This document shows positions 13,245 through 59,849 of a DNA stretch of 64,000 nt, piece by piece. This DNA is from a bacterium (GTDB lineage: Bacteria > Cyanobacteriota > Sericytochromatia > S15B-MN24 > UBA4093). Positions within the stretch are counted from its first letter, which is position 1; each line of letters begins with the position of its first letter. The position numbers were made by a program, and so were the translations under genes. The notes below the pieces were generated by a model, which did no database searches, was not told the DNA's origin, and saw only the letters and a list, made by a program, of their open reading frames with translations. Location of the stretch: contig JAGIBK010000008.1 in the NCBI GenBank assembly GCA_017744355.1, forward strand, positions 17,461 through 81,460, written 5' to 3'.

Positions 13245-13498
13245 ATAGCAAGCAGGGGTTATCCCTCGCTTACTTAATTGTGACGATAACGATAGGGTTT
13301 TACCCCGTTCATGGCGGAAGTTGCTGATAATTTCGGGTCTTTTACAAAACGTAAAAAGGCTCGCGGCATAAACTCGAAATCATTCTGTTATACTTTTTGA
13401 GGAATTCAGTCAAAAAACTCAAGGCTGATGCACCTTGTACCCAACTCAGCAACGTCGGCCCGATCTAGCAAGCGATCCGTCATCCGCTATCGGCATCC

Positions 13499-45112: not shown

Positions 45113-46183
45113 ATGAAGAAGCAAACGACCTTCGCGGCCCTCCTCACCTTCGCGCTGCTCGCCGGCTGCACCGCCTCCCTCGCGCCGATCTCGGATCGCG
45201 CCGCCGCCCCGCAGGCGCCTGCCTCTCAGCGACCCGCGACGAGCAACGAAGGCGAGCTGCGCATCGGCATCCGCTGGCCTGATCGCAACGTGCAGGCGAT
45301 CCCCCTGAGCGCCAACTCTGCCACCGTCTGGCTCTACGACTCGGCCGGGCGCCTCATGACTCAAGCCAGCGTCCAGCGTCCCACCGAGGGGAATCTCTCC
45401 TCCCAGGTCTTCTTCCGGGTCAAGGCGACCATGGGGGTGCGCGTCGTCGCCAAGCTGTACGAGCAGACGACGCCCAGCGCCAACGACGTCCCAGTCGCCA
45501 TGGGCACGGGCAACGTGGACATCTACGCCAATAACGTCAACTTCGTCGCCATCACCATGGACCCGCTCATCGAGCCCACCCTCGCGGTGCTCACCCCCTC
45601 TTACGGCGGGGTGGGCAAGGAGATCGTCATCTCGGGAGCCTTCCTCGGCGAGAGCCAGGATTGGCCCGTCACCGTCAAGTTCACCGGGATCCCCGCGACC
45701 TCGGTGACCCGCGTCAGCGACGAGGAGATCCGGGCCACCGTGCCTGCGGGCGCCGTCTCGGGCGACGTGGAGGTGGCGGTGGACGGCATCCGCAAGACCC
45801 TCCCCTTCGAGGTGCTCGTTGATCTGGCCTTCGAGAATCTGAATGGCCAGCAGCAGGCCTACCGGATCGTGCCGCTCACCTGCATCGGGACCTTCACCAA
45901 CGGCAGCAGGCGCCAGGTGGATGCCCTGACCTGGAGCTCCTCGAATCATGGGGTCGCCACGGTGGATCAGAACGGCCTCTTGCGCCCCGTCGCGCCGGGG
46001 ACGGCGAAAATCACCGCCGCCTCGGGCGGTGTGAACAAAGAGGGCACGGTCACGGTGAGCACCACCGGTGCCGTCGTGTTCGTGGCCGTCAAGGTGCCCC
46101 AATCCGGCATGGGCACAGTGGGTGTCCCCATCAACCTTCCTTCGGCCGCACCCGGTAACCTGCCCGTCATCTCGGACCCCTAA
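45113..46183 (+). CDS. lipoprotein with IPT/TIG-like and Big_2 domains
   Basis: Lipobox ALLAGC. LTPSYGGVGKEIVISGAFLG...VTRVSDEEIRATVPAGAVSGDVEV is IPT-like. LTWSSSNHGVATVDQNGLLRPVAPGTAKITAAS is Big_2. Confidence 0.7.
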   Translation: MKKQTTFAALLTFALLAGCTASLAPISDRAAAPQAPASQRPATSNEGELRIGIRWPDRNVQAIPLSANSATVWLYDSAGRLMTQASVQRPTEGNLSSQVFFRVKATMGVRVVAKLYEQTTPSANDVPVAMGTGNVDIYANNVNFVAITMDPLIEPTLAVLTPSYGGVGKEIVISGAFLGESQDWPVTVKFTGIPATSVTRVSDEEIRATVPAGAVSGDVEVAVDGIRKTLPFEVLVDLAFENLNGQQQAYRIVPLTCIGTFTNGSRRQVDALTWSSSNHGVATVDQNGLLRPVAPGTAKITAASGGVNKEGTVTVSTTGAVVFVAVKVPQSGMGTVGVPINLPSAAPGNLPVISDP

Positions 46184-46268: not shown

Positions 46269-48137
46269 ATGAATCGGAAGCAATCGGTACGCCTGGCAGC
46301 GGGCACGCTCTTGGCCCTCACCCTCACCGGCACGCTCGCCTGCGCGCCGCGCGCGGGCCTCGCGCCGAACACTCCGGACGCGCCCGGCGTGACGGCTGCC
46401 GGCAGCCTCGCGGTGCCCGTGACCCTTCCGAAGCTTCAGGACCGGGGCGTCCAGTACCAGTACAGCAGCGGGTACATCAACGCCCTCGAGGTCCTGCTGG
46501 TCGATAGCCTCGGCCGTCACCAGGCCTACGTGGTCTGCCGGAACCCCGAGAAGGGGGCCGCGGGCGGCTCGACCAACGTCCTCTTCCAGAACGTCGCCCC
46601 CGGCACCGCCTGGATCACCGTGCGCACCACCTACCGCCAGCTCATCGGCGAGAACGAGCGCCTCGTGCCCGTCGAGGGCAAGCCCAGTACCTTCGATCTG
46701 GACGGCGGCCCCACCCGGGTGACGGCTGTCAGCGGCACGCTCAGTGGGCCTGATGCGACCAGCGTCCTGGTCTTCAAAAGCACGGATCTTGGCGGCACCG
46801 CGAACGCCCCCGCGGTCCTCTCCTTCTACGAGAACAACGACGGAGGATCCGAGCTCAACGACGCCTCTGACGTTCACGCGGGGTACGGAGTCGGAGCGGC
46901 GAGCGGCAGCGTCGTTGCCGGCAACGTGACGAGCCTGCCGGTGCAGGTCTCCCAACCTCCGACCTTCGATTCGGCCCTGCTCAACACCACGCGTCACACG
47001 GATGCGGGAACGAACATCACCCTCCCAGTGAAGGATGTTCAAGCTGGCGACCGCGTCGTGGTGGTCCGGACCTCCAACCCCTCGGCGACCAGCGACTTCC
47101 TCGACCTGACCAAGGTCGCAAACTATGACTTCTATCCTCTGACCATCAATAGCAGCACGAGCGTGACCTTCACCCCCACTCGCTCAACGGGCGGGATGGT
47201 CAACTACTACCTCTCGCGCGGCGAGATGGTGAGCAAGATTGGCGCCAGCAACGGGAGCGTCTCGCTGGCCAAGGTCCATGTTCATCCGAAGGTCGTGAGC
47301 TCTGCGACGGTGCGCATCGGGTCTGATGATGGGACCTCGCGCCTGCCGCGCCGAACGGGCGAGACCGATACCGTCTACATTACCTTGCGTGATCAGTACG
47401 GCAACCTCGTCACGGGTGCCGATTTCGGCACCCGCCTGATGGACGGCTTCGTGTGGAGGCCCCTGATGGAGCCTGTCCAGACCCAACTGCTTCCGAATCC
47501 TGATGCCTCGACGCATACTCCTGTGGCCTTCATTCCTGGTTCGACCATCGGGCGTCTCACGACGCCCACAGACGCCAACAACGACGGTATTTGGGAATCT
47601 ACCTTTACCCAGGGGGCGGTCACGCCTACGGCTGGCGGGACTGCGGCTTCATTCACGCTCTTCAACAACACCCGGATCCGAGCGCTCTCGTATCTCCATG
47701 ACACCTCAAACTTGGCGGCGACAACGGCATTTGCCCTTGGAGTGACGGCTGATCCTGTGACTGTCGGGGCTCTCTGGCTCACGCTGTACCGGGGGGCCAA
47801 TGTGGCGGGTGGCACCTTCGTCGCGTCTCGTAGCTACCAGCCGGATCTCAGCGCGCCGGACGATGCTGCGACCTTCAGCATCTCACCCACTAGCAATACG
47901 ACTTACCCTGGATCCATCGCCCCTGAGGGATTGCCCTTGATCATGCGGATGGGACGGAACCTGGGAGCCAACATCACGACAGCGGACAATGACACGCGGA
48001 TCGCGGTCACGGTTGGTGCTCGGGCAGAGCTCGATATCGATCGCCCTGTCTTCCGCATCTATCATCAGAATGCGGACGGCTTCTTGACCCTGAAGAACAC
48101 GATTAACGGTAGTGTGAGCTACTCCTGGAAGCGATAG
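46269..48137 (+). CDS. large lipoprotein, Ig-like repeats, unknown function
   Basis: ATG 46269 after AGGGAG. Lipobox-like LTGTLAC. TVYITLRDQYGNLVTG resembles a Big_1 strand. The part of ORF 46068.. upstream of this ATG is ignored. Confidence 0.65.
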   Translation: MNRKQSVRLAAGTLLALTLTGTLACAPRAGLAPNTPDAPGVTAAGSLAVPVTLPKLQDRGVQYQYSSGYINALEVLLVDSLGRHQAYVVCRNPEKGAAGGSTNVLFQNVAPGTAWITVRTTYRQLIGENERLVPVEGKPSTFDLDGGPTRVTAVSGTLSGPDATSVLVFKSTDLGGTANAPAVLSFYENNDGGSELNDASDVHAGYGVGAASGSVVAGNVTSLPVQVSQPPTFDSALLNTTRHTDAGTNITLPVKDVQAGDRVVVVRTSNPSATSDFLDLTKVANYDFYPLTINSSTSVTFTPTRSTGGMVNYYLSRGEMVSKIGASNGSVSLAKVHVHPKVVSSATVRIGSDDGTSRLPRRTGETDTVYITLRDQYGNLVTGADFGTRLMDGFVWRPLMEPVQTQLLPNPDASTHTPVAFIPGSTIGRLTTPTDANNDGIWESTFTQGAVTPTAGGTAASFTLFNNTRIRALSYLHDTSNLAATTAFALGVTADPVTVGALWLTLYRGANVAGGTFVASRSYQPDLSAPDDAATFSISPTSNTTYPGSIAPEGLPLIMRMGRNLGANITTADNDTRIAVTVGARAELDIDRPVFRIYHQNADGFLTLKNTINGSVSYSWKR

Positions 48138-48228
48138 GCGATCGCACGGATCGATGGCGAGTTGATGTGATCTGCCTCCAACCATAGGCTGCTCGTTTTG
48201 TGAGTCCAGCGGGCGGGGGTAGCGTATT

Positions 48229-49076
48229 TCAGGCGATGGGCCGGTCCTCCAAACCGACCTGAGCAGCGAAGCGTTCGGGTGTTTCGCCGCCGAGTGAACT
48301 GTGGGGTCGAACCCGGTTGTAGTCGAGCCGCCAAAGCTCGATGCGATGCCGGGCCTCGAAGAGGCTGGTGAACAGGTTTTCGTTGAGACACTCGTCCCGG
48401 AACTTCCCGTTGAAGCTCTCGATGTAAGCATTCTCCACGGGCTTACCAGGCCGGATAAAGTGGAGCGTCACTCCTCGAGCGTCTGCCCAGGCGTCCAGTG
48501 TCCGTCCTGCGAACTCCGGGCCGTTGTCCACGGTGATGACCTTGGGCAGTCCGCGCATCTCGGCCAAGCACTCTAGAACGCGTACGACGCGAAGCCCGGG
48601 CAACGAAGTGTCGACTTCGATGGCCAAGCATTCGCGGGTGTAGTCGTCTACGATGTTCAACGTGCGGAAACGCTGCCCGGACCAGAGCGCGTCGAGCGTG
48701 AAGTCCATGCTCCAGCGTTCATTGGCCCGCTGCGGGGCGTCCGGGATGACCCGCGCGCCAGCCACTAGCTTCTTCCTGCGCTTTCGCCTGACGGCAAGCC
48801 CTTCCTCTCGGTAGATCCTGAGCACGCGCTTGTGGTTGAGGATGAAGCCCTCGCGCTTGAGCAGAGTGTGAAGGCGCCGATAGCCGAAGCGTGGGCGTTG
48901 CGCCACAAACTCCTTGAGCTTTTCACGCACGGCGCCATCGTCGCGCTTTTTTGCGCGCTGATAGAACACCGAGCGGGCCAACCCAACCAGGCCGCAAGCC
49001 TTGCTTTTGCTGAGACGGTGGGCGCGTGCTATATGCTTGACCATCTCTCGCTTGGTTTGCGCCCTACCACTTTTTT
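48229..49076 (-). CDS. IS3 transposase OrfB (rve/DDE integrase core), expressed as an OrfAB fusion by a -1 frameshift
   Basis: [30 protein letters not shown] (D, D, E), and C-terminal [11 protein letters not shown]. Confidence 0.85.
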
Positions 49077-49330
49077 CCAAGCACGTCCTTAAGGGCCACA
49101 ATATCCAGGGCTTGGTCCGCAACGATCCGCTTGAGATGGCGGTTTTCCTCTTCGAGGGCTCGCAACCGCTGTGCCTCACCGATTTCCATACCGCCGTATT
49201 TCGCCTTCCAACGGTAGAAGGTCTGCTCGGTAATGCCCTGCTGGCGGCAGATGTCGGCTGTCTTGATGCCACGTTCGACCTCTTTGAGGAGGCCAATGAT
49301 TTGCTCTTCTGTGAAACGACTTTTCCGCAT
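49064..49330 (-). CDS. IS3 transposase OrfA (HTH)
   Basis: [45 protein letters not shown]. Leucine-zipper region. Ends ...GKKW. Confidence 0.85.
49070..49076 (-). other. programmed -1 ribosomal frameshift heptamer A AAA AAG
   Basis: GGAAAAAAGTGGTAG at the end of orfA. The orfB frame is open across this site. Confidence 0.7.
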
Positions 49331-49561
49331 GGGGTGTCCTCCTCGGATCACGTACCCGTGCAGACTCACTTTTCAAGTTGTCCATTCTCGTGGGAGCAGG
49401 TCAAGGCGACAACAAGCTGAACATGGCCCCTTGCTGAAGATCGTACCCTTTCATCCCACCCTCACGAGCAGATCCGCTGCCGTTTCTGCTTCATGCCACC
49501 GCGTAGCAAGCGTCCAGGCCATGGTCTGAGTTTTTCAGCACCTGTTAAGGAGACACGCATG

Positions 49562-49620
49562 GGGGGCGGGCTGGTTATTAGTAAAATCAGCCTGCCCCCT
49601 TATTCATTTATTTTTTCGAG
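49562..49620 (+). terminator. hairpin plus T-rich tract at the high-GC to low-GC boundary (terminator-like on the plus strand)
   Basis: 12-bp stem GGGGGCGGGCTG / CAGCCTGCCCCC (one G-T pair), 14-nt loop, then TTATTCATTTATTTTTTCG. No plus-strand gene lies upstream. Confidence 0.4.
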
Positions 49621-51744
49621 CTATCTGGGAACTATTTTGAATAAATGGTTCTTTGTAGTGAAATATGGGGTATCTGTTTTATCAACTGCAACTGCTAATG
49701 TGCTATGTAGAGTAACGGGACTACTTCCCCAATTCTGGTCATAAATGCCATTTCCTCTTCCTGCTATCGTGCTTACGAATCCATCCGGATAAATCTTTCT
49801 AATAGTTGCATCCCAATCCGTAGTTATTGCATTGTCTGCCACATACAGGTTTCCAATGCTGTCAGCTGCTATTGAAACCGGCTTAGTAAAACTTGCCTGG
49901 AAACCATTAGCTTTTCCTACTAGCCCAGTCCCAGCTACAGTTGATACTTCACCAGAAGGTGTGATGACTCGAATGTATAATCCTTCTTCTGCAATGAATA
50001 TATTTCCATTCTTGTCAATAGTAAGTGATGTGGGTCTGTCAAATTTAGCAATTTCTTTTTTGCCGTCTAGATGGCCCCTGGTTCCGTCTCCTGCAAATGT
50101 TGAAACGGCTAAATTAGGCGCGATTTTTCTGATTCTGTTGTTATCTGTATCGGCAACATAGATGTTTCCACTATTGTCAATTGCAATTCCTTTTGGGTTA
50201 TTGAATCTCGCACTTGTTCCATTTCCATCTAAGAATCCACCTTGATACGACGAAGGTCCATAGTTGCCCCAGGTCAATGGATTGCCTCCGCCAGCAATTG
50301 TGGTAACTGTCCCATCAGGGAATACTTTCCGAATTCGCTGGTTGTTTGAATCAGCAACATATATATTTTCGGAATTATCAAGTGCGATAGCATATGGCAT
50401 GCTGTAAAGCGCAGAAGATCCAACGCCATCCTTGTATCCCCAATATGAAGAACCAGTAGTATAGATATTTTGAGATAGATTTTGACTCCATCTTTTAACA
50501 TACTGATGGAAGTCCATATCTGCAGAAGAATGGTTAACCTCTGATGTATATATTTCGCCACTTTCGGAAATTGTTAATCCAGTTGGACTCCAGAAAATTG
50601 ACGTTGCATTATTTGGGGTTTTTATGTCATTTAAGTATTTTCCAACGTATTCAACGGTTGGTTGGCTTGCCGTATTGTGACTATAGTCGACATTTATTTT
50701 GCTAATGCTGTTACTAAGATAGTTTGCAATCAAGATGTTTCCATCTCTGCCGCAAGTTATGCTTACTGGCTCTGAACCCGTCGGGTAGGTTCCTATGATC
50801 AATCCATTTCGGGATAGTCTTGTGACATTGGCATTGTATTTGTTCAACACCCATGCACAGCCACTGCGGTCAATAGTGATTCCAAATGACGAATTTCCTG
50901 CTTTATATGTGTATATTTTTCCGTCAGGTGATATTTTTGTAACTGATGAATACCTCTCGGCTCCAATTTTGCTATATGCTGAAACCCATGCGTTTCCATA
51001 ATCATCGACGATAATAGCATTTGCTATTGGCGTTGAGTAGCTGTCTCTACTTTGAGACAGGATTGATTCGAGAGGGTATTTGGTTACGGTTTGTTCATTA
51101 TTTGTTAGTTTATATATCCCTGAATTTGATGTGCTGCTATATAGCCAAACATTGTTACTTTTATCGATATATACCCTGTTCAGGCTTGGGTTTGGTTTTG
51201 TTATTGTGCTTAATAGCTGCTTTAAATTTGAATATTTATATAGATAATTGTTCCCAGATTCGCTAATAAAATAAATCATGCCATTTGATTGTCGAATGTC
51301 GAAGCTAGAGCCGACGGCTGGTAGCGTAATACCTGAGCCGTTCGCAAGACCTGGGGCGCCTAAATTTCTAAGTACGTTGGAGTCTTGCTCTAGCGCCCAA
51401 ATATTTCCGCTGGGATCAAACTTGAAGTAACCATTAGTAACGCCTCGTGCAACCTTAGTTAAATACGGATAACGTCCATCAGGGTTTAGCCTTATAATGG
51501 ACATTCCTATATCAGTTTTGCATGAGATATATATATAGCCATTATCGCTTCTTTGTGTAATATATTGCGGATATTCGCTAGTATTATAAGTCTCTGTATT
51601 GTCTCCTGTAGTGTCTCCTATGGCTAAGGTTGCATATTGCTTGTTATTTTCTGGCTTGCTAGTTTGAATAGTTTCAATGGTATTTGCTTGATAACAAGAT
51701 GTTGTAATAATGGTAATAATTGACATTAATAATAATTTATTCAT
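49621..51744 (-). CDS. low-GC NHL-repeat / double beta-propeller lipoprotein (foreign composition)
   Basis: Lipobox IITTSC. C-terminal NHL repeats (PYAIALDNSENIYVADSNNQRIRKV, PKGIAIDNSGNIYVADTDNNRIRKI, PTSLTIDKNGNIFIAEE, PVSIAADSIGNLYVADN). The N-terminal half has D..GN.W-type propeller repeats. A/T-rich codons, unlike all neighbouring genes. Confidence 0.8.
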   Translation of the reverse strand: MNKLLLMSIITIITTSCYQANTIETIQTSKPENNKQYATLAIGDTTGDNTETYNTSEYPQYITQRSDNGYIYISCKTDIGMSIIRLNPDGRYPYLTKVARGVTNGYFKFDPSGNIWALEQDSNVLRNLGAPGLANGSGITLPAVGSSFDIRQSNGMIYFISESGNNYLYKYSNLKQLLSTITKPNPSLNRVYIDKSNNVWLYSSTSNSGIYKLTNNEQTVTKYPLESILSQSRDSYSTPIANAIIVDDYGNAWVSAYSKIGAERYSSVTKISPDGKIYTYKAGNSSFGITIDRSGCAWVLNKYNANVTRLSRNGLIIGTYPTGSEPVSITCGRDGNILIANYLSNSISKINVDYSHNTASQPTVEYVGKYLNDIKTPNNATSIFWSPTGLTISESGEIYTSEVNHSSADMDFHQYVKRWSQNLSQNIYTTGSSYWGYKDGVGSSALYSMPYAIALDNSENIYVADSNNQRIRKVFPDGTVTTIAGGGNPLTWGNYGPSSYQGGFLDGNGTSARFNNPKGIAIDNSGNIYVADTDNNRIRKIAPNLAVSTFAGDGTRGHLDGKKEIAKFDRPTSLTIDKNGNIFIAEEGLYIRVITPSGEVSTVAGTGLVGKANGFQASFTKPVSIAADSIGNLYVADNAITTDWDATIRKIYPDGFVSTIAGRGNGIYDQNWGSSPVTLHSTLAVAVDKTDTPYFTTKNHLFKIVPR

Positions 51745-52224
51745 TTTTTCCTCTCTGTTGATTTAGTTGCAATTTCCAATACAATTATATTGTACTATGC
51801 CATCCTAAAAAACAAAAACCATAATCATAATATTTCAAGAGTTACGCAGGGTAGGTTGAACGCAGCCACCTTAGCGAGGTCAGGTGGCGGGGAGCATGAA
51901 AGTGACTTGCCGGCGAGAGAGCGGACGCCCCTCTGCAGGATGATCTTGCGCTTCCTGCCCACCCCTGCCGCGATCTGGGAGTAGTCACTTTGGCGCCGAA
52001 GGCACCATGCGATCGCCCCGAAGGCTCGATGAACCAAGGATGGCCGGCCCATTGCCTTGCGATCGCCTGGATCGAAGGCGCCTTGGTGGATGACCACCTC
52101 TATCAGCGCGTTCGCTCCCCGCATAAGTCGCTTTCCGCAATAATGGACTGATCGTCCGCTTGTCCTGTGGGTATAACCTCTCATGACGCTGGCTTGACCG
52201 TTTAGCCCGCCCAGGGAGGTTCCC

Positions 52225-53994
52225 ATGAAGCTCATGCGCGAAGGAATGGAGCGGCTGCAGTCGCTCGTGCGCCAAAAGGCCGAGAACCTGACCACCAAGG
52301 TCGCCCGTGAGGGGGCCGAGAAGGTGGGCAAGGAAGGCGCCGAGAAAGTAGCCAAGGGCTTCGCCGACGAGGTCCTCTCGGTCTCGAACACCGCGCGCAA
52401 GCTCGCCCAGGTCAAGGCCGATCCCGAGATCGCCAACCTGGCCTTCAAGGTCGCCGCCGAGCAGGGTGGCCTCAAGGGCGGACACCTTTCCAAGCAGGTC
52501 ATGGAGGATGCGGCCGGCCAGCGCTGGATGTTCAAGGCCGTGCCCAAGGGCGAAGAGTACCGGGCGCTCGGGGATAAGGCCGGTGGCGACATCCTGCGTG
52601 CGGTCGGCATCTCCACTCCGCAGGTCCACCTGACGACCCAGGTGATGGATGGTCGTCCCCAGTTCGGAACCATCCAGAAGCTGGTCGACCACTCGGGCCA
52701 GAAGCTGCCGAGTGATGCCACCAAGCTCTCGCGCCAGCAGCTCGACGAGCTGACCGAGTCGCACGTGGGCCGCTGGCTCATCTCGGACCACGACGGCAAG
52801 GTCGAGAACTTCCTGGTCCGCAAGGGCGGCGGGGTCGAGACCATCGATCTCGGCCAGATGTACCGCTTCTTCCCCGAGGACTCCCTCGATCGCCTTTACC
52901 AGCCGAACGCCAAGAAGCCCATCTTCAACGAGATGTGGGACGGCTACGTCTCGGGCAAGATCGACCTGAACTTCCAGAAGGGCCTGGACCAGGTCGCCAA
53001 GGTCGAGGCCCTGGCGGATGACGAGTTCGTGAAGCTGCTTCGCCCCTACGCCGAGACGCGCTACGCTCAGGCGGGGCCGATCCCCACCATGAAGACCGTC
53101 GACGAGTTCATGCAGTCGGCCCTGAATCGCAAGCAGAACCTCCGCGACGACATGCTCGGCTTCTACGATTCGCTCGCCAAGGAGCGCGGCCTCTCGGGCG
53201 TGGAAGAAGCCCTCGGCTCCTACGCCTCCCAGCACGCCGACGACATCCGTCGCGTAGGCCTCCAGCCTGTCCAGAAGCTCCATCCTCGGGTCGCGGAAGC
53301 CTTCGCCACGAGCCGTGCCAACGCCGCCCGCTACAAGGAGGAGACCATCCAGGTCCTCACCGAGAAGTTCGGGAACCGCACGGTGGCCGAGCAGAAGTAC
53401 AAGGCGATCTACGAGAAGGTCCGCAAGGACATGTTCATCGCCGCTAACTACCCCAACAGCGCCCTGACGACCGCCATCAAGGAAGGCCGCATTCGCTCGC
53501 TCTACGACTTCCCGATCAAGGAGCAGATCGAGAGCAAGGGCGTCGGCTACGTCGCCGGGCGCCACTTCGCGGACCTGCGTCTCGGCCTTCACGGCGACAA
53601 CCCCCTCTACGTCACGGTGGGCGGCAACAAGAAGTACGCCAAGGACATCGCCAAGTACGGCGACACCATGGTCCGCTACAAGGAGGCCGAGCTCGCGGGC
53701 AAGGTCCTCTATTCGGATGGCAACCACAACTTCTATGCCAAGAACATGCTGAACGCCAAGTCGAAGTTCGAGAGCCAGCGCTTCACCTACTTCGACGTGC
53801 CGCACCTGACGGTCAACCGCATCGTGAAGGAGGGCCTGGATCCCAAGGAGGCCAGCCACCTGATCGAGGGCATCGTCTACGGAGGGATCGATCCACGCAC
53901 CGCGGCGGAGGCCATCAAGCCCCTGCGCGCGGAGGCCTCGAAGGAGGCGCTCCTCGAAATGGCGAAGGACGCCAACATCTCCATCTTGCCGTGA
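52225..53994 (+). CDS. PI3/PI4-kinase-like (atypical kinase fold) protein with an unknown ~300-aa C-terminal region
   Basis: RBS GGGAGG. QRWMFKAVPKGEE (Lys, nt 52534), WLISDHDGKVENFLV (D-x-H...N catalytic-loop-like, nt 52786-52809), VETIDLGQ (IDxG, nt 52843-52854). Function is inferred from motifs only. Confidence 0.6.
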   Translation: MKLMREGMERLQSLVRQKAENLTTKVAREGAEKVGKEGAEKVAKGFADEVLSVSNTARKLAQVKADPEIANLAFKVAAEQGGLKGGHLSKQVMEDAAGQRWMFKAVPKGEEYRALGDKAGGDILRAVGISTPQVHLTTQVMDGRPQFGTIQKLVDHSGQKLPSDATKLSRQQLDELTESHVGRWLISDHDGKVENFLVRKGGGVETIDLGQMYRFFPEDSLDRLYQPNAKKPIFNEMWDGYVSGKIDLNFQKGLDQVAKVEALADDEFVKLLRPYAETRYAQAGPIPTMKTVDEFMQSALNRKQNLRDDMLGFYDSLAKERGLSGVEEALGSYASQHADDIRRVGLQPVQKLHPRVAEAFATSRANAARYKEETIQVLTEKFGNRTVAEQKYKAIYEKVRKDMFIAANYPNSALTTAIKEGRIRSLYDFPIKEQIESKGVGYVAGRHFADLRLGLHGDNPLYVTVGGNKKYAKDIAKYGDTMVRYKEAELAGKVLYSDGNHNFYAKNMLNAKSKFESQRFTYFDVPHLTVNRIVKEGLDPKEASHLIEGIVYGGIDPRTAAEAIKPLRAEASKEALLEMAKDANISILP

Positions 53995-54052: not shown

Positions 54053-55901
<1,849 letters not shown>

Positions 55902-55918
<17 letters not shown>

Positions 55919-57311
55919 GGTATGGGTCGCCCCAGGCATTGTCAAACCACGCTTGCCTCTCGCGAATCGCCTTCACGACCTGCTGCGTCGCCGGACCGAT
56001 CGGAGCCTGGGCCCCTCGCCTCACTCCCACGATCCAGAGCACGTCGTTACCGGTGGCGAGTACGAGTTGGCGCTCCATGAGCGGACGTGCCACCCGCTGC
56101 TTGGAGAGAAACTGAGCGAGGGGACGCGAGGTCCCACGGCCCCAGGGGGTGAAGCGATCGGTGTCGGGTCGTGCGAGGCGCCATACCAGGTCGGTGGGCA
56201 GGCGATCAGCATCGAAGGCCTCTTCCGGGCCGAGGGACTGGGGGCTCTCGGCGGCCAGCTTCAAGCTGAGCAGGGCGCCCGCAAGCTCGATCGTTTCACC
56301 CGGGCGCGCCGGCACCGGGGCGGGCGCTTCGATCGCCCGGTACAGGAGCAGTAGCCCGTGTCGCGCCTCGGCGCGCAGCCCGTCGCCCACGTCTACCCCT
56401 TCGCCCGCCTCGCGGATCCGCTCCAGGCGCAGGGCGCTCAGGCCGCGGTGGGTGCCCTGCACGTGGGCGTAGGCCTGGGCCAGGATGCGGCGCTGGAGCG
56501 CCGGGTGCAGGGCCGTAAGGCCGGCTTCCTCCAGGCCGATCAGGCCGGGGGCCTGGTGCCGCAAGAGCGGCCGGATCGCTTCGCGGGCCTGATGTCGTAA
56601 ATAGTCGTCCTCGTCGGCGAGCACGGCGAGGTTCGCCCCCAGGGTGCGGTGAATGGAGGGGTTGAGCGTCCGCAGCGCCGGGGTTACCTCGTGACGCAGC
56701 CGGTTGCGAGGGATGGCGGCGTCACGGTTGCTCTCGTCCTCGAACCACGCGAGCCCGTGGCTTTCGAGATAGGCCTCGATGGTGGCGCGCGCGACGCCCA
56801 GCAAGGGGCGTACGATCCGGGGCCCCTCGTGCTGTGGGCGTGTCGCCGGAATGCCCAGCAAGCCCGGCAGGGCAGAGCCCTTGGTCAGGCGCATGAGGAC
56901 GGTTTCGAGCTGGTCGTCGGCGTGATGCCCCAGCGCCAAGTGGGTCGCGTTGCTCGTCTCGGCCAGCGCATTGAGCGCGGCGTAGCGGGCGTCGCGGGCG
57001 GCCTCTTCGGGGCTCTGACCCGGGCTTGGACGGGCTTCGACTCGCGCGATCCGGAATTGGAGGCCCCAGCGGGCCATGAGGTGGGTCAGCTGCTCGGCCT
57101 CGGCGTCCGCCGCCGCGCGCAGGCCGTGGTGGATGTAGGCGGCCTCGATGTGCCAGCCTCGCTCCGGCGCCAGGCTCCACAGGGCGTGGGTGAGGGCGAG
57201 CGAGTCGGCTCCGCCCGAGCAGCCGACGAGGATGCGCGCGGCGGGCGGGAAGAAGCCGTGGCGGGCGCTCATGGAGAGGATACTGGAAAGAAGCGACTCG
57301 GGGGGCGTCAT
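55902..57311 (-). CDS. tilS: tRNA(Ile)-lysidine synthase
   Basis: PP-loop ILVGCSGGADSLAL. AHHADDQLETVLMRL. Its 3' end overlaps the ftsH start by 17 nt. Confidence 0.9.
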
Positions 57312-57514
57312 GGGCTTTCTCGAACCATCGGAAGGGCGAATCCACCGGGAAGGCGAGCGCCGTGCGGCTTTAGTTCGGTTTCAGGTCGGCTTTATTCTCG
57401 CACTAAATCGCCAGCGGTGCCTCCCCTGGATTGTTTCAAGGCAATAAACCGTTTGTTTTCCTTGCGAGGGGCGACCAGGAGCCAAATAGCATCCGATTGA
57501 TTGACGAAAATAAG

Positions 57515-57566
57515 TCCATGAAGCAATTTTATTCATGAATTAATATGTAGTTCTTCATGAATTAAT
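57515..57566. repeat. direct repeats of a 13-mer (TTCATGAATTAAT) in the tilS/MCP divergent intergenic region
   Basis: Exact copies at 57532-57544 and 57554-57566 (22-bp period). A degenerate copy TCCATGAAGCAAT at 57515-57527. Each copy contains the palindrome TTCATGAA. Confidence 0.7.
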
Positions 57567-57708
57567 GTAAAAAACTCGGTTGTTTCGGGAACTTTTGAGA
57601 TAGCATCCAGACATCGCGATGTTTTTATCTCAATCACCAACAGATGAATTTAGTTGCATGTGCTGGGTGGCGTCATAGCCAACCGTTACAGCTACTTTAG
57701 GAGGTGTC

Positions 57709-59843: not shown

Positions 59844-59849
59844 GAAGAG

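Follow-up and report, generated by a model that had tools for sequence, protein, structure and literature searches.

The window considered here is the whole 64,000-nucleotide stretch of contig JAGIBK010000008.1 (assembly GCA_017744355.1, positions 17,461 to 81,460). Between about 49,540 and 51,860, it contains an island of low-GC DNA with a single gene, which encodes a predicted lipoprotein of 707 amino acids (aa) with two beta-propellers. The island lies in the following gene order: dnaJ, cysS, a SpoU methylase gene, a small open reading frame (ORF), a gene for a Big_2 protein, a 689-aa gene with a lipobox-like motif, an insertion sequence (IS), the 707-aa gene, a 589-aa gene, ftsH, tilS, a gene for a methyl-accepting chemotaxis protein (MCP), and an HD gene. 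Coordinates of the individual features are listed in Table 1.

Table 1. Features of the low-GC island and its neighborhood, in window coordinates
Feature	Coordinates	Strand	Basis or remark
Putative foreign gene, 707-aa predicted lipoprotein with two beta-propellers	49621-51744	minus	Sole long ORF in the interval
Signal peptide with lipobox MNKLLLMSIITIITTS followed by C (Cys17)	51694-51744	minus	Match to PROSITE-like lipoprotein pattern
N-terminal propeller, virginiamycin-B-lyase/SGL type, residues about 59-430	50455-51570	minus	Pfam, phmmer, Foldseek
C-terminal six-bladed NHL propeller, residues about 440-705	49630-50427	minus	Pfam, AlphaFold, Foldseek
A/T-rich 5' region of the island, 104 bp, GC 0.28	51745-51848	minus	Read from sequence
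Hairpin (49561-49600) with A/T-rich tail (49601-49620, 90% A/T)	49561-49620	plus	Terminator form
Variable slot between lipoprotein gene (ends 48137) and 589-aa gene (starts 52225)	48146-52149		L082 homology break
Spacer, 22 bp	48146-48167		Between end of L082 homology and IS
IS of the IS3 family, IS407 group, 1236 bp, GC 0.60, apparently intact	48168-49403	minus	Pfam and termini of relatives
orfA	49064-49369	minus	Pfam HTH_Tnp_1
orfB	48229-49296	minus	Pfam rve/rve_3
Spacer, 157 bp, GC 0.55	49404-49560		Between IS and island
GC-rich (0.62) host-like segment, 301 bp, two GCGATCGC sites (52009, 52059)	51849-52149		Within the slot
Big_2 Ig-domain protein	45113-46183	plus	Surface-type gene
622-689 aa protein with lipobox-like LTGTLAC	to 48137	plus	Surface-type gene adjoining the Big_2 gene
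589-aa orphan protein	52225-53994	plus	No family match

A first-pass annotation of the window had described a sharp fall in GC content over this interval, to a level in the mid-30s %, and had proposed windowed GC and tetranucleotide statistics as a check. The fall was clearly reproduced, whereas the level was measured at about 39%. GC content was 38.7% at 49540-51860 and 38.6% at 49561-51848, compared with 65.0% for the full window, and no other stretch of such length in the 64 kb was lower. As a host reference, 112 windows of equal length were taken outside the variable slot described below. Their GC content had a mean of 66.3%, a standard deviation of 2.1, and a minimum of 59.9, which places the island at z = -13.3. 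The L1 distance of its strand-symmetrized tetranucleotide frequencies to those of the host was 0.98, compared with a mean of 0.21 and a maximum of 0.36 for host windows (z = 23), and its TETRA-type correlation with the host was 0.13, compared with a host mean of 0.66. The deviation is therefore extreme rather than absent. GC content switches within ~25 bp at either edge, near 49575-49600 and near 51840-51850, and the contrast of 27 points between island and host is unusually large and unameliorated. A stretch of this kind is unsuited to binning or compositional statistics. Two further GC dips (about 46%), at 13245-13498 and 57312-57708, are ordinary intergenic regions of 250-400 bp and not foreign DNA.

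The composition of the gene itself is equally foreign. As previously annotated, the interval holds one gene on the minus strand with A/T-ending codons. Its GC content by codon position is 0.40/0.44/0.32, compared with third-position values (GC3) of 0.75-0.95, mostly 0.85-0.95, in host genes. All three codon positions are AT shifted, with no sign of amelioration. At 39% GC, about 6.5% of random codons are expected to be stops. Because the frame stays open for 707 sense codons, the ORF represents a real and intact gene. Upstream of it, a Shine-Dalgarno sequence, GAGAGG, can be read at 51755-51750, 5 nucleotides before the ATG, as can a perfect TATAAT at 51789-51784. A consensus scan of the minus strand of this upstream region called no full -35/-10 promoter. 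In exact-sequence look-ups, the 707-aa protein had no match among recorded called genes, and a 48-nucleotide piece of native DNA had none among GTDB representative genomes.

A low-GC fragment misjoined into a high-GC contig during assembly or binning would also change composition abruptly, and suspicion of such an artefact is fed by the metagenomic assembly, by a nearby repeat (the IS), and by a lower local contig depth in the island in some runs. Four runs, all from a single soil metagenome sample, contain the stretch. Contigs that were assembled separately span 47500-50546 and 50798-53500 in run X1 and 49122-49710 and 51800-52043 in run X2, with no mismatch in any of them. Since contigs from both read sets cross each junction without mismatch, both junctions are physically supported. 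Furthermore, an insert of 2.3 kb requires two independent chimeric joins, and the 170-kb contig continues as high-GC DNA to its left and right. We give a misjoin next to no chance; the low-GC island is not an artefact.

Among sampled sequences, the closest relative at this locus is L082, a 4.5-kb Logan contig of 66% GC with three sites for the octamer GCGATCGC (cyanobacterial HIP1). It was obtained by a word-indexed protein search and contig look-up for the 589-aa gene, scans of genome contigs and of metagenome contigs with that gene having returned nothing. Its 589-aa orthologue (P0276) is 92% identical in aa and 90% in nucleotide sequence to the gene in the window. L082 carries, in this order, the 3' end of the lipoprotein gene, a MerR gene, an alpha/beta hydrolase gene, and the 589-aa gene. 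Homology to the window stops at 48145, past the lipoprotein stop codon and the adjoining GCGATCGC site, and begins again at 52150, with 75 bp left to the start codon of the 589-aa gene. Because homology breaks there and the cargo inside differs, we regard 48146-52149 as a replaceable slot. It holds 4.0 kb in the window (the IS and the foreign gene) and 1.9 kb in L082 (two unrelated genes of host-like GC, L082 699-2597). Neither the MerR nor the alpha/beta hydrolase gene of the L082 slot has a counterpart in the 64-kb window. Within the slot, the segment 49404-49560 resembles neither L082 nor the remainder of the window nor any locus retrieved for comparison; likewise, 51849-52149 is not shared with L082 and does not match any of the retrieved loci. 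Outside it, the 3' end of the LTGTLAC lipoprotein gene is only 69% identical in nucleotide sequence to its L082 orthologue, compared with 90% for the gene across the slot. The slot, bounded by the lipoprotein gene on one side and the 589-aa gene on the other, can be viewed as a hotspot of gene turnover.

Metagenomes from compost (X5), groundwater (X9), and rice paddy (X11) gave a similar result. They contain contigs that are 88-95% identical to both flanks and essentially do not cover 49.7-51.9 kb at >=80% identity. Closer inspection did not reproduce two short stray matches to this interval that X9 and X11 had shown. Since the gene is absent from the L082 slot and from these three metagenomes, its acquisition appears to be recent and strain or species specific. 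Together with the extreme composition, this bears out the earlier proposal of a recent horizontal acquisition from a low-GC donor, for which a comparison with related genomes had been suggested. If the gene were instead an old resident of the lineage, with its low GC kept by selection or local mutational bias, it would be expected at the same locus in relatives; it is missing from all four, its AT shift extends to every codon position without amelioration, and its tetranucleotide signature is unrelated to that of the host. We consider long residence extremely improbable. The set of relatives compared includes no long contigs closer than about 90% nucleotide identity. Synteny anchored on TilS led to L001 and L002 as the nearest genomes, and these are too distant (42-43% identical TilS) to date the insertion.

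The source of the gene was sought by protein comparison. In a search of 5.8 billion protein clusters, non-self matches were 26-44% identical over 32-91% of the protein and were scattered among Opitutaceae, Flavobacterium, Sericytochromatia, Acidobacteriota, and others, with scores inflated by the repeats. The taxonomy of the best matches, which the first-pass annotation had recommended recording, consequently spans several phyla. No donor can be named from this comparison, as the best non-self match is at most 44% identical. A phage, plasmid, or defense origin was rejected: there were no PHROG matches, PADLOC gave one match at chance level, and tblastn searches of plasmids and phages returned only repeat matches of 25-38% identity.

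We also searched for signatures of mobility. There is no tRNA within 8 kb of the island (the nearest is at 59849), no integrase or recombinase in a scan of genes that covered 40 to 63 kb, and no significant direct or inverted repeat flanking the island, only chance-level ones such as ACGCA. An integron gene cassette was rejected, as no attC-like site and no tyrosine recombinase were found in the scanned neighborhood: the hairpin at 49561-49600 lacks GTTRRRY core sites at its ends, and the occurrence of one GTTGAAC, at 51855, does not exceed chance. Explanations based on Rfam families, tRNA, attC-like sites, or flanking repeats gave nothing above chance. The locus resembles classical genomic islands in its atypical composition and in being missing from related genomes, whereas integrase, tRNA or tmRNA target, and flanking direct repeats were not found. 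Among the closest known counterparts are genomic islets, strain-specific single genes without mobility genes, with which the locus shares atypical GC and oligonucleotide composition, absence from relatives, and a position in a variable slot beside an IS. Its unusually large GC contrast sets it apart from them.

The IS was examined as a possible vehicle. It shows the hallmarks of the IS407 group, namely, its length, orfA with a helix-turn-helix domain, orfB with a DDE (rve) domain, an A6G slippery site for -1 frameshifting at 49076, and inverted termini of the TGACCTGC type. Its ends, TGACCTGCTCCC and TGATCTGCCTCC, match copies in Bordetella holmesii and in LC031, a metagenome-assembled genome (MAG) of Sericytochromatia. 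The latter harbors two copies that are the closest relatives of the element, at only 62-63% aa identity. Alternative ends, GTGAGTC...GACTCAC (48200-49369) with a TTTT duplication, were overruled by these IS407-group copies, which place TGACCTGC-type termini at 48168 and 49403. Unlike typical members of the group, the element has no detectable 4-bp target-site duplication (GATG versus AGGC). The first-pass annotation had described an intact IS3 element and placed its end about 140 bp to the left; it lies 157 bp before the hairpin.

Delivery or capture of the gene by this element, as a composite-transposon remnant, by recombination between IS copies, or by an IS-associated rearrangement, could be suspected from its position 157 bp from the island within the same variable slot. 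In addition, the relative in Bordetella holmesii has a target-site duplication (GCTC), and the absence of one here would be expected if the flanks of the present element had originally been noncontiguous, which is compatible with a rearrangement of the slot involving the IS. The missing duplication is weak evidence, however, as no obvious duplications accompany the copies in LC031 either. Moreover, this is the only copy of the IS in 64 kb, its 60% GC compared with 39% in the island speaks for different origins, its closest relatives mark it as an element of the host lineage, and GC-rich DNA that does not belong to the island separates the two. A composite transposon was rejected, because the single IS (48168-49403) has no partner copy to the right of the island. 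We regard a role of the IS in delivery as quite unlikely, and its adjacency, which had been cited in support of import, reveals no delivery link.

The left edge of the island is marked by the hairpin, which has 16 pairs, 10 of them G-C, and an all-A/T loop. Folded as plus-strand RNA, with G.U pairs included, it reaches -34.3 kcal/mol (z = -4.7), and a U-rich tail follows. The minus-strand RNA contains A-C mismatches, reaches -25.2 (z = -2.4), and lacks a U tail. The tail adjoins the foreign gene, with the hairpin 20 nucleotides past the minus-strand stop codon. The hairpin had been annotated as a plus-strand terminator-like structure, which agrees with these values, without a plus-strand gene to terminate, which does not: the 689-aa lipoprotein gene that ends at 48137 is a candidate. 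Two origins of the hairpin appear about equally probable. It may belong to the host and terminate the 689-aa lipoprotein gene, in which case the foreign DNA would start only at about 49601-49620. When the IS is removed, this same-strand gene ends 187 bp upstream of the hairpin; its L082 orthologue has its own terminator about 50 nucleotides past the stop. Alternatively, the hairpin may have arrived with the foreign fragment, and the junction would then coincide with the base of its stem, 49560/49561. In the length of its stem and A/T tail and in its all-A/T loop, it differs from the other terminator-like sites in the window, which have stems of 5-8 pairs, mostly 5-6.

The product of the gene begins with a signal peptide whose lipobox, MNKLLLMSIITIITTSC, fits a PROSITE-like lipoprotein pattern (which we take to correspond to PS51257), in line with the lipobox (IITTSC) noted earlier. 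In the AlphaFold model, residues 2-18 form a helix and residues 19-58 are disordered. The protein is accordingly predicted to be a Sec/Lsp-type lipoprotein, lipidated at Cys17 and tethered to the membrane via a flexible linker of ~40 residues. Pfam, AlphaFold, and Foldseek agree with the annotated architecture of two propellers.

The C-terminal part is confidently modeled as a canonical six-bladed NHL propeller. Pfam NHL (PF01436) scored 93.1 bits, above its gathering threshold of 20, in three independent stretches, and TEN_NHL scored 61.5 bits against a cutoff of 27.1. Predicted local distance difference test (pLDDT) values of the model are mostly 88-98 over residues 440-705, with lower values near residues 490-500 and 640-680. 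Foldseek template modeling (TM) scores, normalized to the target, were 0.81 for Pizza6, 0.80 for TRIM71, 0.76 for Thin, 0.74 for SOQ1, and 0.72 for NHLRC2; the best PDB matches by sequence were NHL domains of teneurins. Of the at least four canonical NHL repeats claimed previously, three were detected by regular expression, with cores at residues 461, 528, and 582. A fourth, near residue 633, was recognized by eye and was not matched by the expression. The likeness to known NHL propellers (the sensor domain of Mycobacterium tuberculosis PknD, SOQ1, NHLRC2, TRIM71/Brat, and teneurin) consists of canonical NHL repeats and a six-bladed fold in the C-terminal 270 residues. With PknD and the teneurins, the protein would also share the location of the NHL domain outside the cytoplasm. 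It differs from the known NHL proteins in the preceding second propeller and the lipobox anchor and has no kinase, thioredoxin, RING, or transmembrane module.

The N-terminal propeller is less clearly defined. D..G[NC].W motifs were found at residues 110, 247, and 292, consistent with the D..GN.W repeats annotated earlier. Pfam SGL (PF08450) matched residues 155-331 with 41.2 bits (cutoff, 26.3), a match that indicates the type of propeller only. In an exhaustive HMMER scan of 1.8 billion representative proteins, the central blades (residues about 240-355) were the sole N-terminal part with relatives. They resemble the D-x-S-G-N-x-W repeats of virginiamycin B lyase (Vgb) and of many uncharacterized repeat lipoproteins. 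The first ~200 residues (~220 after the signal peptide) had no relatives in this set, and the N-terminal half had no full-length relative.

These matches raise the question of whether the product catalyzes a reaction, as an SGL/SMP-30-type lactonase or a streptogramin-B-type lyase, instead of binding a ligand. Besides the SGL score, Vgb_lyase (PF24684) gave 46.8 bits, and Vgb was the best PDB match of the N-terminal domain both by sequence (phmmer, 1e-6) and by fold (streptogramin B lyase 2QC5, TM to target of 0.72 in Foldseek). Vgb (2Z2N, 2QC5) and the SGL/SMP-30 lactonases also share the D-x-x-G-N-x-W blade motif with this domain. The Vgb_lyase score is, however, under the Pfam gathering threshold of 50, and the fold match was obtained with a model of pLDDT 57. 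Of the candidate functions suggested by the first-pass annotation (adhesin, toxin-binding or phage-receptor-type factor, or lyase), the lyase thus falls short of the Pfam threshold. The phmmer alignments to 2Z2P and 2QC5 fall on generic repeat blades in two registers, leaving the C-terminal catalytic blades of Vgb, with what we take to be a conserved His/Glu metal-binding site, essentially unaligned (3 bits). The first ~200 residues, for which no relatives were found, are a further difference from Vgb. Known Vgb lyases are cytoplasmic single-domain proteins, not NHL-fused lipoproteins, which likewise speaks against an enzyme. We consider catalysis an unlikely function of this protein.

A ligand-binding platform for an extracellular or periplasmic ligand, either protein or glycan, is most likely, based on the analogy with other NHL and tandem-propeller ectodomains. 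The hybrid two-component sensors BT4673 and BT3049 of Bacteroides and the type IX secretion protein PorZ also present two consecutive beta-propellers in an envelope protein and were matched by Foldseek at 1e-14 to 1e-15. With whole-chain TM scores of only 0.25-0.38, this resemblance is one of architecture only. The 707-aa protein has neither the transmembrane kinase part of the sensors nor the C-terminal domain typical of type IX secretion. A bolder proposal is that the protein founds a family of tandem-propeller lipoproteins not sampled before, that it came from a low-GC lineage that is likewise unsampled, and that it is expressed and useful in its host, e.g., as a surface adhesin for cell-cell or prey contact. 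The gene would then also be a natural test case for the expression or silencing of strongly AT-rich foreign genes in such hosts. This proposal we hold to be very doubtful. Neither NHL propeller lipoproteins nor compositionally atypical islets are rare, the function assigned to the present protein is generic, and no new mechanism is involved. A literature search found nothing specific on the transfer of NHL lipoproteins.

Taken as a whole, the interval from ~49561/49620 to 51848 is very likely a recently inserted single-gene foreign islet, whose gene encodes a predicted two-propeller lipoprotein with a presumed role in ligand binding. A short fragment comprising one gene and its 5' region would have come from an unsampled low-GC organism and may have been integrated by illegitimate, non-site-specific recombination. 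Its target would have been a nonessential, plastic intergenic slot of a 65%-GC, GCGATCGC-rich genome, a slot that turns over between strains. The fragment would have carried along an A/T-rich 5' region with the TATAAT and a ribosome-binding site (GAGAGG), perhaps together with the terminator hairpin, and it may be expressed in the present host. The product would then be exported and presumably lipidated on Cys17, with a flexible tether presenting the two propellers, where it might bind its ligand.

Several observations weigh against this interpretation. All four runs that confirm the junctions derive from one sample, and contig depth inside the island is lower in places (3-5 versus 6-11), which could be due to AT bias or to the island being carried by some members of the population only. 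Divergence from the relatives amounts to 5-12%, metagenome coverage is fragmentary (about 5-15x, short contigs), and the L082 slot holds different cargo instead of a clean empty site, so the ancestral state and the exact junctions are not defined by it. None of the RNA runs contains the foreign gene; of the metatranscriptomes listed for the flank, the one examined (X6) matches essentially only the conserved ftsH. A gene with a GC3 of 0.32 in a host with a GC3 of ~0.9 may be poorly translated or a neutral passenger. The model of the N-terminal propeller, computed for the domain alone, is of low confidence, and a catalytic role as lyase or lactonase is a minority possibility for the product.

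If the interpretation of a foreign islet is correct, the locus offers a well-delimited case of a very recent single-gene import in a poorly sampled lineage, with the junctions placed within about 60 bp. For annotation, the analysis flags the gene as accessory and foreign, and the comparison locus carries different cargo.

The identity of the host was approached through its conserved genes. TilS of the window is closest (42-43%) to those of two Candidatus Sericytochromatia MAGs, L001 and L002, and FtsH is 74-80% identical to theirs. These MAGs have 65-66% GC and carry GCGATCGC (2 in 6.8 kb, 7 in 15.5 kb). Based on the similarity of TilS and FtsH, the GC content, and the octamer, the host is a distant, unsampled relative of this nonphotosynthetic cyanobacterial lineage. 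In the window, 39 copies of GCGATCGC were observed compared with 2.3 expected, a 17-fold enrichment. A literature search found no article mentioning both Sericytochromatia and HIP1. The first-pass annotation had pointed out that the octamer is missing from the island and returns at 52009 and 52059. It is indeed absent between 48138 and 52009, although this is not significant, with ~1.5 copies expected in 2.3 kb and three larger GCGATCGC-free gaps (6970, 4101, and 3930 bp) in native DNA. We therefore rejected its absence as evidence of import.

The genes pnp, HD, tilS, and ftsH occur in the same order in the Sericytochromatia MAGs (window 54053-57311, minus strand). The MCP gene located between tilS and HD in the window is unmatched in these MAGs. 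Synteny breaks right after ftsH, where an accessory segment (44.6-54.0 kb) begins. Within this segment, the real start of the LTGTLAC protein is probably an ATG (MNRKQ) near 46270 and not the GTG at 46068. For the 589-aa protein, no match was found in Pfam, PDB, PHROG, or PADLOC, and a search of 5.8 billion clusters yielded only eight relatives. The gene context differs for every one of them, with a partial tandem paralogue in L083-L085, and the gene looks like a mobile or fast-moving orphan.

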